A program made the position numbers and the translations under genes. 64,000 nt of DNA from a virus: positions 64,001 through 128,000 of the IMG/VR virus record IMGVR_UViG_3300035188_001379. One strand, 5' to 3'. Below the pieces are notes generated by a model, which did no database searches, had not been told where the DNA came from, and saw only the letters and a list, made by a program, of their open reading frames with translations. Every line of letters starts with the position of its first letter. Positions within the stretch are counted from its first letter, which is position 1. Shown here piece by piece: positions 28,158-33,008 of this stretch.

Positions 28158-28232
28158 GCCAGCATAGCTCAGCGGTAGAGCACCGGTTTTGTAAACCGTA
28201 GGTCCTCGGTTCGAATCCGAGTGTTGGCTCCA
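28158..28232 (+). tRNA. tRNA-Thr(TGT)
   Basis: Full cloverleaf, loop TT-TGT-AA, TTCGAAT T-loop, encoded CCA. Confidence 0.95.
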
Positions 28233-28236
28233 TTTA

Positions 28237-28311
28237 CGTGACGTAGCCTAGAGGCCAGGCACTTGCCTTGGGAGCAAGATCACGTGAGTTCGATTCTCAC
28301 CGTCACGACCA
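28237..28311 (+). tRNA. tRNA-Pro(TGG)
   Basis: Cloverleaf, C1:G72, loop CT-TGG-GA, encoded CCA. Confidence 0.95.
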
Positions 28312-28325
28312 ATTTGCAACAAATA

Positions 28326-28424
28326 AACTCTGTAGTTCAGTGGTAGACCATCGCTCCCTCAAGGTTAAGGGCCAAAAAGCTGGGAATAAAGCGAGTGCCG
28401 TTGGTTCGATTCCAACCAGAGTTT
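28326..28424 (+). tRNA. tRNA-like gene with 34-nt anticodon loop (intron-containing or pseudo-tRNA), identity unassigned
   Basis: Acceptor AACTCTG/CAGAGTT, D-arm TAGTTCAGTGGTAGAC, anticodon stem TCGCT/AGCGA, T-arm GTTGG-TTCGATT-CCAAC; no CCA. Confidence 0.75.
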
Positions 28425-28494
28425 TTTGTTGCAACTACAATAAAAAGAAGAGATACTTCATAAAGCTGATCTGCCATGTGTAGACACAGTAAAA

Positions 28495-28529
28495 GCCTCG
28501 TTATGCGGGGCCTGCTTTGTTCTTTAACA
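28495..28529 (+). promoter_or_regulatory. boxB-like hairpin + rrn-type boxA antitermination signal
   Basis: GCCTCG-TTATG-CGGGGC hairpin, then TGTTCTTTAACA (28518-28529), one mismatch from TGCTCTTTAACA. Confidence 0.6.
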
Positions 28530-28537
28530 TCTTAAAT

Positions 28538-28611
28538 CGCGGGATAGTGAAGTGGTAAAACGACAGTCTCATAAGCTGTAGTCCTAGGTTCGATTCCTAG
28601 TCCCGCAACCA
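28538..28611 (+). tRNA. tRNA-Met(CAT), initiator-like acceptor end
   Basis: Cloverleaf, loop CT-CAT-AA, C1xA72 mismatch, encoded CCA. Confidence 0.9.
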
Positions 28612-28625
28612 ATTTTTCAGCAACC

Positions 28626-28878
28626 GCGAACCCTCCGGTAGTAGGTTAACAGGTAATATGGAAAGCTTACTTGATGTAAATCCTGCTGAAAAGCGACACC
28701 TGCCGTACAGTGCGATCACAGTGCGCTTGGCCCGGACGCGGGCGACTGAGTGGTGTGACAGCTGGAGAGACAGCAAAGCTTGCTATGCGATTAATAGTAA
28801 GTTAACCCCTGAGCGACACCTGCGAACTTGCGATGCTGCATTTCAAGGCTAAAGTGGTGTGACACTGGGAGAGACTAG
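28626..28878 (+). ncRNA. Tandem two-copy structured RNA motif (unknown family)
   Basis: Both copies contain TAGTA(A/G)GTTAAC, GCGACACCTGC, AGTGGTGTGACA and a stem-GAGAGA-stem. Confidence 0.6.
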
Positions 28879-28887
28879 GTAATTTTG

Positions 28888-28961
28888 GCGGGTGTAGCAT
28901 AGTGGTAATGCTCTAGTCTTCCAAACTAGCTATGAGGGTTCGATTCCCTCCATCCGCTCCA
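28888..28961 (+). tRNA. tRNA-Gly(TCC)
   Basis: Cloverleaf, loop CT-TCC-AA, T73, encoded CCA. Confidence 0.95.
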
Positions 28962-28966
28962 ATCAT

Positions 28967-29053
28967 GTAGGAACGCCGGAGTTGGAGAGCCGGAGTGGAC
29001 TGTAAATCCATTGCCTTCGGGCTGACAGGGTTCGAATCCCTGGTCCTACACCA
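28967..29053 (+). tRNA. tRNA-Tyr(GTA)
   Basis: Loop CT-GTA-AA, long variable arm (GCC-TTCG-GGC), T-arm, encoded CCA. Confidence 0.92.
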
Positions 29054-29061
29054 CTTCAAGC

Positions 29062-29587
29062 ATGAAACAAAAAAAGAAAAAAAGCGAAGTAACCCTAGCG
29101 CACACAGGAGACAAGTCCGTTGTCTACGATGTAGATATTGACGCTGGTAAATTTTTAGTGATATACTATACAGCTTTAGACGAATGCGAAGTATACTGGA
29201 AAAACGGTACTGTAAGTCTAGCAGCTCACACAGAAGAGTATCGTAAAGCTGTGCAAGCTGTAGACAAGCTATACTCAAAAAATTCTTATGGACATTATTA
29301 AACCTGCAAAGCCCATCATTGAAATTAATGAGCCTTCCAGAGTGACTGGAAACATTAGAGTTATTCCAAAACCTGGTAAGTTTTATTATATTGATTATAA
29401 GGATGCTGAAGAACCAGAAGGAAGCTATTTTGGACTAGCTCGCTGTGTGGGTGTCTATGAAAGAAATGTAGAGGGAGAACAAATCTACCCTCCGCTATAT
29501 GAGTTCATGCATACAACAAAAGAAGGAGATCAAACACTGAGTTTGTTTTACGCTTCAGAAGTAGTCATGGAAGCAAAGACCCATTAG
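29062..29587 (+). CDS. Two small hypothetical CDSs inside the tRNA region (29062-29301, 29288-29587)
   Basis: Overlapping ORFs between tRNA-Tyr and tRNA-Gln. Confidence 0.6.
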
Positions 29588-29592
29588 ACCAT

Positions 29593-29666
29593 TGGCTCAT
29601 GGTGTAATGGTAACACAGCAGATTTTGAATCTGTTATTCTAGGTTCGAGTCCTGGTGAGCCAACCA
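29593..29666 (+). tRNA. tRNA-Gln(TTG)
   Basis: T1:A72, loop TT-TTG-AA, encoded CCA. Confidence 0.95.
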
Positions 29667-29672
29667 TTAACA

Positions 29673-29747
29673 GGGCAGTTAGCTCAGCGGTAGAGCGGCT
29701 CGTTTACACCGAGTTGGTCGGGGGTTCGATTCCCTCACTGCCCACCA
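29673..29747 (+). tRNA. tRNA-Val(TAC)
   Basis: Cloverleaf, loop TT-TAC-AC, encoded CCA. Confidence 0.95.
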
Positions 29748-31961: not shown

Positions 31962-33008
31962 ATGGAAAAATTAGCAGTAATCGCAAAAGTATTAGAACTC
32001 GCACCCATCGAAGGAGCAGATCGAATCGAACGTGCTACTGTGCTTGGTTGGCACGTAGTTGTGAAAAAAGGTGAGCACAAAGTGGGAGATCTTGTGGTAA
32101 TGATCTTCCCTGATTCGTACGCATACAAAAGCTATGTAGATGCAACATACATAGGCAGTCAAGAAAAGACAAGAATCAGAACAGTCAAAATGCGCGGACA
32201 ATATAGCGCAGGGCTAGTCTTGCCTCTTGCCGAAGTCTATGCTGCAGCAGAACGAAAAGGTCTTCCTTCAAGAGTTTGGGAAGAAGACGAGGAGGTGAGT
32301 GTGCTCCTTGACATCGAGAAGTGGGTAGCTCCTGTAGGCATGAGTACAGGAGGAAAAGAAATTGGAGATTTTCCTACACGCTACATTAACAGAACAGACG
32401 AGCTCAATTTCAGAAGCGAGCCTGGAGCCCTGCTTGAGGCAAGAACAGACCCTAGATTCAAGAATGTGGAGTTTGTGGCTACGCTCAAATGTGACGGCAC
32501 CAGCGCCACCTATATCAGTGTGCCTGGCTACTTCCATGTATGTGGCAGGAATAAAGAGTATGCTGATGTAGACGGCAGCATGCACTGGGAGATAGCCAAA
32601 AAGTACAAGCTTGAAGGTAACCTAGAAGAAAACTACGCAATTCAAGGAGAGATCTGCGGCCCTGGGGTGCAAGGCAATCCAATGAAGCTAGACTCTCGAG
32701 ACTTGTTTGTTTTCAGAGTTAAAAATCTTGCTACTCACGAGTGGCTTGGTTGGGATGATCTTAAACTATTCTGTGCTCAGCACTATCTCAAACATGTGCC
32801 TGAAATTACCAGATTCGTGTTTTCGGCAAACGTACCTAGCATTGAAGATTTGCAAGACATTGCCAATGATGCCAAGTACGACCATGGGCGAGCAAACGCT
32901 GAGGGAGTTGTAATTTTCCCTGTAGTACCGATCAAAAGCCTCAGCCTGCAGAAAAGCTACTGGAGCCTTAAAGTAATGAACCAACCTTACGACATGAAGA
33001 AAGGTTAA
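31962..33008 (+). CDS. RNA ligase, DRB0094/Rnl2-like with N-terminal OB/tRNA-binding-like domain
   Basis: PIEGADRIE, RTVKMRGQYSAGL, FP...I.RTDE, motif I KCDGTS, IQGEICGPGVQGN, EGVV, KV. Confidence 0.88.
   Translation: MEKLAVIAKVLELAPIEGADRIERATVLGWHVVVKKGEHKVGDLVVMIFPDSYAYKSYVDATYIGSQEKTRIRTVKMRGQYSAGLVLPLAEVYAAAERKGLPSRVWEEDEEVSVLLDIEKWVAPVGMSTGGKEIGDFPTRYINRTDELNFRSEPGALLEARTDPRFKNVEFVATLKCDGTSATYISVPGYFHVCGRNKEYADVDGSMHWEIAKKYKLEGNLEENYAIQGEICGPGVQGNPMKLDSRDLFVFRVKNLATHEWLGWDDLKLFCAQHYLKHVPEITRFVFSANVPSIEDLQDIANDAKYDHGRANAEGVVIFPVVPIKSLSLQKSYWSLKVMNQPYDMKKG

Follow-up and report, generated by a model that had tools for sequence, protein, structure and literature searches.

Within the tRNA cluster of phage T4, the small stable RNAs rnaC and rnaD (species 1 and 2) are made from the same transcript as the tRNAs and freed from it by processing, and their function has stayed unexplained; we know of no such RNAs from the 3' regions of capsid genes or from bacterial genomes. 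Among self-cleaving ribozymes, the hammerhead is built on a three-way junction with the core strands CUGAUGA and GAAA and a UH cleavage site, and the HDV-like fold comprises a P1 that runs from the cleavage site, and P1.1; its catalytic C lies in J4/2, past P4, and the 3' strand of P2 closes the fold. In type III toxin-antitoxin systems, the antitoxin RNA (ToxI) consists of nearly identical repeats in tandem, with the gene of a conserved endoribonuclease toxin downstream; ToxI units are cut from one transcript, and phage-borne arrays of them can neutralise host defence. HDV-like theta ribozymes have been found adjoining phage tRNAs (Kienbeck et al. 2024, PMC10879173), and an orphan structured RNA near a tRNA cluster has been described from a cyanophage (PMC9964418). 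In this study, two copies of a short RNA module were analysed in the tRNA cluster of a viral genome; both are members of a large, undescribed family of compact noncoding RNA modules, borne by uncultured phages and now and then by bacterial chromosomes and prophages, which is a new family among the orphan structured RNAs of phage tRNA and late regions.

The window, by which we mean the whole stretch of 64,000 nucleotides analysed, comprises bases 64001-128000 of a 184,465-bp IMG/VR virus record with an estimated completeness of 94%, and carries replication genes of the large-phage kind (an SbcC-like nuclease, helicases and a DNA polymerase). Its plus-strand tRNA cluster at 28158-29747 contains, in order, genes for Thr, Pro, an odd tRNA-like gene, Met, Gly, Tyr, Gln and Val, and both module copies lie in the 276-nt gap between tRNA-Met and tRNA-Gly, inside which there is no tRNA (Table 1). 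The odd tRNA-like gene (28326-28424) has an insert of about 34 nt in its anticodon loop (CCCUCAAGGNUAAGGGCCAAAA...), and the same insert recurs at array ends in two unrelated contigs (L069:2683-2780 and L099:8496-8593), its motif being present in 3 of the 120 viral loci listed; since it recurs in unrelated contigs, this gene is a conserved RNA rather than a decayed tRNA. A 348-aa RNA ligase (PF09414 with a PHA02142 OB fold) is encoded at 31962-33008 on the plus strand, 3 kb downstream of the tRNA and noncoding RNA cluster.

Table 1. Features of the interval from tRNA-Met to tRNA-Gly, in window coordinates
Feature	Position	Strand	Basis or remark
tRNA-Met(CAU)	28538-28611	+	ARAGORN; upstream neighbour of the two-copy region
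Motif X (5' domain, separate conserved structured RNA)	28615-28691	+	11 homologues; complete before copy 1 only
Copy 1, invariant 5' block GCGACACCUGC	28693-28703	+	P1 5' strand ACACC at 28696-28700
Copy 1, variable insert, 45 nt	28704-28748	+	Insert table, length distribution
Copy 1, invariant 3' block AGUGGUGUGACA	28749-28760	+	P1 3' strand GGUGU at 28752-28756; GACA linker at 28757-28760
Copy 1, P2 hairpin GCUG-GAGAGA-CAGC	28761-28774	+	Stem covariation, 80 homologues
Putative motif X relic before copy 2 (GCGAUUAAUAGUAAGUUAACCCCUGA)	28787-28812	+	Lacks P1, P2 and hairpin
Copy 2, module	28813-28878	+	GCGACACCUGC at 28813-28823; 29-nt insert at 28824-28852
Copy 2, 3' half	28853-28878	+	AGUGGUGUGACA at 28853-28864; P2 CUGG-GAGAGA-CUAG at 28865-28878
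3' tail/linker GUAAUUUUG before tRNA-Gly	28879-28887	+	Fits family tail A-C-N-N-U-U-U (136 unique modules)
tRNA-Gly(UCC)	28888-28961	+	ARAGORN; downstream neighbour, starts 9 nt past the P2 hairpin of copy 2

Both copies share one anatomy, in which a variable insert separates GCGACACCUGC from AGUGGUGUGACA and a 4-bp stem capped by a GAGAGA loop follows, copy 1 extending in all from 28693 to 28774. A preliminary description, made from the letters alone, had listed a series of strings common to the two copies, and a direct sequence check located every one of them, including GCGA (28626 and 28787), TAGTA(G/A)GTTAAC (28639 and 28795), GCGACACCTGC (28693 and 28813) and AGTGGTGTGACA (28749 and 28853). 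The pairing of ACACC with GGTGT that it saw around the variable insert is helix P1, which covaries across homologues, and its GAGAGA-loop hairpins, whose stems differ and yet pair, are P2, the stem of which covaries across 80 homologues. Its tandem two-copy motif is a real repeat, but the repeated unit is a module of about 80 nt that begins at GCGACACC, copy 1 being fused to a separate domain; likewise, GCGA, TAGTAGGTTAAC and CTGA are shared upstream of both copies but belong to a different conserved RNA domain, here called motif X, and TGCGAT, which had been counted as a shared element, sits in the variable insert and is no feature of the family. The combined module pattern gave 2 matches in the window as against 0.00 in 100 shuffles, and the entire 184-kb record holds these two copies only. 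The minimum free energy (MFE) fold of copy 2 recovers P1 and P2; taken singly, the two modules have folding energies (z -0.28 and +0.33) no better than those of shuffles, and the support for the structure is comparative.

The exact 23-base core, in the pattern GCGACACCTGC-N20-50-AGTGGTGTGACA, was found in at least 120 IMG/VR contigs, and a nearly identical pattern at 34 loci in bacterial genomes, where chance would be expected to supply about 0.04 matches to the exact core. This expectation was scaled from a looser control pattern made of type A variants with a base other than A at helix position 3, whose 104 matches were all chance hits in unrelated sequence; the scan of these variants added no covariation data and served to calibrate the chance rate. 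Over the viral and bacterial loci, 146 unique copies were collected, their inserts measuring 20-58 nt. No fewer than 120 additional contigs carry a sister form, GAACGCC-loop-GGCGUGAC-hairpin(GAGAGA), and among the matches listed 13 of 113 sister-form loci also hold the first form; viral contigs with one or other of the two sampled subtypes thus number at least 240, and the family extends to several bacterial phyla.

A covariance model built from 29 clean copies recovered 80 modules in 37 loci, divergent types included. In the alignment of these 80 modules, standard pairs fill 97.4% of cells, a share that falls to 78.4% in shuffles and does not exceed 49% once the partners are slid, and double-sided changes occur at 7 of 9 pairs, both helices covarying, with the qualification that the alignment was fitted to the model and that many of the contigs are related, so that the cell counts overstate independent events. 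P1 reads ACACC/GGUGU in the type present in the window and ACGCC/GGCGU, ACACA/UGUGU, ACGUC/GACGU or CCACC/GGUGG elsewhere, and the P2 stem is free to vary around a fixed closing G-C pair and a fixed GAGAGA loop. From 5' to 3', the members consist of a pyrimidine-rich flank, G-N-(G/A), P1 (ACRCC/GGYGU), whose far end opens into the variable insert, then GAC(A/U), P2 and an A-C-N-N-U-U-U tail. Nucleotides conserved in at least 90% of the 80 modules are the 5' G-N-G-A-C, then G-N-G-N-GAC-A, and G-GAGAGA-C; in type A the junction UGC...AGU is invariant as well, and the insert that it encloses ranges from almost nothing to two hairpins. Module size is about 45-90 nt, the minimal members measuring about 45 nt, and the 3' element is common to modules that otherwise differ. 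Both the 5' flank and the 3' tail are rich in pyrimidines, and pairing with the purine loop would be possible for the flank in 45% and for the tail in 54% of modules, as against 11-14% in controls. The two copies in the window have no pyrimidine-rich 5' flank, thus pairing between loop and flank is not universal. From these comparisons we infer that the module would fold as a small knot-like unit, in which P1 and P2 are probably stacked and the purine loop may pair with the flanking pyrimidine tracts.

An ORF of 64 aa (28658-28852) spans both copies. Among the 146 unique copies, insert lengths modulo 3 are distributed 63/30/53, with 83 of the 146 not being multiples of 3, and forward frames are open in only 23-42% of copies. 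The insert lengths thus ignore the reading frame, which marks the ORF as spurious, and a protein-coding gene was rejected, since the conserved blocks occupy every relative frame among homologues. The preliminary description had held that conservation of this ORF at the protein level, or homologues without covariation, would speak against a structured RNA; the ORF is not conserved, the homologues do covary, and its proposal of a structured noncoding RNA in a phage tRNA operon is borne out by the comparative evidence, while the roles that it suggested, as a self-cleaving or processing ribozyme or a protein-binding RNA, stay candidates. It had also been unable to place the motif in a known family, and in agreement with this a search of Rfam 15 (4227 covariance models) returned nothing on 28612-28887, either at gathering scores or at E<=10. 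With the same library, only tRNAs and a tmRNA were recovered from the arrays of 12 viral loci, from L026 (E<=5) and from 18 bacterial loci, and blastn against 50,697 GenBank phage records gave no real match to 28612-28887. In the literature searched the motif is undescribed, and one of the candidates left without a name by Fremin et al. 2023 (PMC10690425) might correspond to it. Mimicry of the 16S rRNA decoding site was considered on account of ACACC/GGUG, which we take to be common to the module and the decoding-site helix, and was dropped because type A has an A-U pair where the internal-loop adenines that define that site stand.

The domain fused to copy 1, motif X, is a second undescribed structured RNA that is independently conserved. 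It is closed by an 8-bp helix P1 (28615-28622 with 28684-28691), within which lie a 4-bp P2 (ACCG 28623-28626 with CGGT 28636-28639, ACCR/YGGU in the family) and a variable hairpin at about 28650-28673; its conserved single strands are CGAMCCC, GGUAKWUAGGU and RUAAAUCC, and the strings GCGA, UAGUARGUUAAC and CUGA are part of it. Across 11 homologues, 11 of 20 predicted pairs show compensatory changes, the fold is more stable than that of shuffles (MFE z -2.27), and no Rfam model matched it in the E<=10 search of the window region. A pattern scan found motif X at 14 viral loci. As in the window, the order tRNA-Met, motif X, type A module, with motif X directly adjoining the tRNA, is present in L046, L059 and L072; L037 also has an upstream tRNA-Met, but with an extra hairpin region intervening, and two loci (L264:5437-5518 and L265:6736-6816, both on the minus strand) have motif X by itself, with a terminator-like hairpin behind it. 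Comparison with copy 1 and with the motif X consensus suggests that the segment preceding copy 2 is a relic of this domain.

In phages, the modules lie on the sense strand, either in tRNA clusters or between the stop codon of the major capsid gene and the next start codon. Among the 120 viral loci listed, 56 carry an SU10-type major capsid gene (PF17236), and in every locus with a tRNA or tmRNA no more than 300 nt away, this gene and the module share one strand (23 of 23 loci). Arrays at the capsid locus contain 1-4 recognised modules (up to 5 by eye) and start 8-13 nt past the capsid stop codon; 90 distinct arrays were compared, 77 of them with a scorable downstream ORF, and 37 of these 77 end 7-13 nt before the next start codon. 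The module is transcribed on the sense strand as a part of polycistronic units, be they tRNA operons or late genes, and its surroundings hold no dedicated protein partner.

Phage tmRNA genes adjoin arrays at L072:13737-14156 and L025:2867-3213, the former starting about 20 nt past a module hairpin. Other recurrent modules, none of them in Rfam, were also seen in arrays (L003, L005, L016, L029, L069 and others; e.g. L029:10580-10700), including a palindromic hairpin CUCCAAUUGGAG immediately before GCGACACC, a hairpin of the form 'cccgccaaggcuag...ccucaaaccggcggg', and a 'gugcaagcg...gggcacaa' element.

The distribution in bacteria is patchy, as the module is present in 12 of 61 relatives of one Pseudomonadales genome, with 1-6 copies each. 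Some bacterial copies belong to prophages or have defence genes around them, the neighbours being an OLD/GajA-like nuclease, a dGTPase, Vsr with Dcm, PDC-S31, PDC-S48 and a portal protein, and many bacterial copies have no downstream ORF nearby. Several have a promoter-like element about 30 nt upstream, and single copies with such an element, which speak against the handle model proposed below, look more like independent small-RNA genes than like processing cassettes. In three related Pseudomonadales genomes (L131, L133 and L156, identical to L269-L271), a single copy occupies a syntenic chromosomal site, flanked by an SDR gene on one side and by a RidA (L-PSP) gene in convergent orientation on the other, with CTATAGACCTGACCCC about 30 nt upstream, and looks like a vertically kept small-RNA gene. 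Searches with Pfam, PADLOC and all-against-all tblastx gave no conserved partner protein beside the bacterial copies, the only shared neighbours being the RidA and SDR genes of these three genomes.

As a tentative first choice, to which we assign a probability of about 0.4, we propose that the module is a portable, knot-like RNA handle that would delimit and stabilise discrete small RNAs within polycistronic transcripts. The U-rich linkers that flank the module would be cut by general RNA-processing enzymes of the host, with RNase E-type cleavage in the linkers and RNase P cutting at the next tRNA, and the folded module would then shield the new RNA ends; discrete stable small RNAs might thereby accumulate, in the window motif X with module 1 and, separately, module 2, and at the capsid locus the 3' end of the capsid mRNA upstream would be protected. 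RNase E favours U-rich sites of the linker type, and the handle model fits the shared 3' element, the tight packing of the arrays and the composition of the linkers. On the other hand, a plain hairpin suffices to stabilise a 3' end, thus stabilisation alone leaves the roughly 30 invariant core nucleotides unexplained; about 20-30 near-invariant core nucleotides, kept across phages of different kinds and bacteria of several phyla, imply either an exact tertiary fold or a contact with something universally conserved in the cell.

The module might instead be a new class of small self-cleaving ribozyme, with the core of about 45 nt (GA, P1, GACA, and P2 with its GAGAGA loop) as the catalytic centre, to which type A would add the UGC/AGU junction. 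Such a ribozyme would cut the polycistronic transcript at or near the module boundary and so free tRNAs, mRNAs and modules without host nucleases; if true, phage tRNA and noncoding RNA operons and late mRNAs would be divided into units independently of the host. The distribution resembles that of hammerhead, twister and theta ribozymes, with phages, patchy bacteria, tandem arrays, positions beside tRNAs and unrelated gene contexts, and the 14-30 invariant nucleotides, the decorations tolerated at one site, the minimal forms, the abrupt start of conservation at the 5' G of GCGA and the lack of an accompanying protein would all suit a catalytic RNA. However, the signatures of known catalytic cores are absent, the Rfam ribozyme models are empty at E<=10, and the semi-conserved U-rich linkers already provide ordinary nuclease sites; furthermore, to our knowledge few orphan RNA motifs have proved to be ribozymes, thus the prior is low, and we consider self-cleavage rather unlikely.

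The same invariance across phages and bacteria of several phyla might also reflect a trans-acting decoy or sponge, expressed by phages as arrays at a high level, whose core would mimic or bind, and so titrate, a conserved host component such as a factor of translation or RNA processing, or a widely transferred defence nuclease. Tandem copies at the most highly expressed places, beside tRNAs and tmRNA and right after the capsid gene, would serve such a purpose, and the frequent location of bacterial copies among defence or mobile genes, together with the promoter-like element upstream of some of them, points in the same direction. Yet no cognate protein is conserved alongside, the three Pseudomonadales copies beside SDR and RidA genes lie in an ordinary metabolic neighbourhood, and CsrA in particular does not suit as the target, as the loop lacks GGA in several members. 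A role as titrating RNA appears rather unlikely. Hairpins of the CsrA-binding GGA type were rejected as an identity for the module on the same ground, several members having CAGAGAAU or UGAGAGA loops without GGA.

Control in cis of the following gene, whether as a riboswitch or through translation or termination, is a poorer account of these arrangements. The close approach of many arrays to the next start codon, by a linker without a Shine-Dalgarno sequence and with GGAG in the P2 loop, would agree with it, as would several bacterial copies that stand 25-45 nt upstream of an RBS and ATG, and riboswitches too show a conserved core, variable stems and tandem arrangement. But a riboswitch is a conserved aptamer, with an expression platform, that precedes a coherent set of genes, and here what follows in the window, as in 23 other loci, is a tRNA or tmRNA, downstream genes are mutually unrelated, many bacterial copies have none nearby, and arrays mix module types with differing interiors; a leader or riboswitch was consequently rejected, what lies downstream being tRNAs, tmRNA, tail-region genes, unrelated small ORFs or nothing, and regulation in cis appears quite improbable. 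That the element is no RNA at all, being either the short ORF that spans both copies or a DNA site (a recombination site, a replication origin or a REP-like repeat), to which the position of some bacterial copies beside tRNAs at island borders might be related, is contradicted by the frame data given above, by compensatory changes that tolerate G-U on one strand only, by an orientation that is always that of the flanking genes and by the low copy number of only 1-6 per genome, and hardly deserves further consideration.

Few natural RNA folds are at once so small (about 45-90 nt), so invariant in sequence and so widespread, and motifs with such properties have earlier proved to be ribozymes, riboswitches or binding sites of core machinery. 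The module occupies the most heavily transcribed regions of phages, being found in tRNA operons and just 3' of the capsid gene, and as no protein gene travels along with it, it probably acts alone or through universal host machinery. Its role, whether that of the RNA handle proposed here or another, would explain 'extra' RNAs in phage tRNA clusters, a question that dates back to T4 rnaC and rnaD, and the module could become the basis of a compact, portable RNA part with uses in processing, insulation or stabilisation.

With T4 rnaC and rnaD, the module shares its small size and a place within a phage tRNA cluster and, as proposed here, would share the release of a stable RNA from the tRNA transcript. 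Identity with them was rejected for want of similarity, as model R1, run without filters, scored at most 2.3 bits across T4 68-76 kb, with nothing on 70908-71171. The hammerhead, twister and HDV-like theta ribozymes are, like the module, compact RNAs with a conserved core and variable peripheral stems, found beside phage tRNAs, in tandem, and patchily in phages and bacteria. Unlike theta, the module has no nested double pseudoknot, only the A-C-N-N-U-U-U tail is conserved past its last hairpin, and its conserved loop sits in what would be P4, a part that HDV-like ribozymes can dispense with; membership of the HDV-like group was rejected on these features and in the absence of any match to an Rfam HDV-family model. 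Nor does it have the CUGAUGA and GAAA core strands of the hammerhead, GACA standing in place of GAAA and CUGA preceding GCGACACC in a subset of members only, and as no Rfam hammerhead model matched either, this class was likewise rejected.

The manA, wcaG, glnA, abiF, GOLLD and ROOL RNAs are, as is the module, conserved structured RNAs of phages that often lie near tRNA clusters, their roles being wholly or partly obscure, although their Rfam models found no match on the window region or on the arrays, and compared with GOLLD and ROOL the module is far smaller and its core more invariant in sequence. The arrays recall ToxI repeats and phage pseudo-ToxI arrays in being tandem series of small structured units, processing being only proposed for the module, but its units are not identical repeats, the core alone being conserved while stems and inserts differ; a type III toxin-antitoxin RNA was rejected, since no toxin or other protein family is shared downstream (Pfam, PADLOC, tblastx). 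Finally, intercistronic stabiliser hairpins, REP elements and flavivirus xrRNAs resemble the module in their position just after a highly expressed gene and in being often tandem. REP elements are each specific to a species and reach hundreds of copies, whereas the module has 1-6 per genome; with xrRNAs, to which Rfam revealed no sequence similarity, the module would share a knot-like fold with conserved nucleotides, as predicted for it here.
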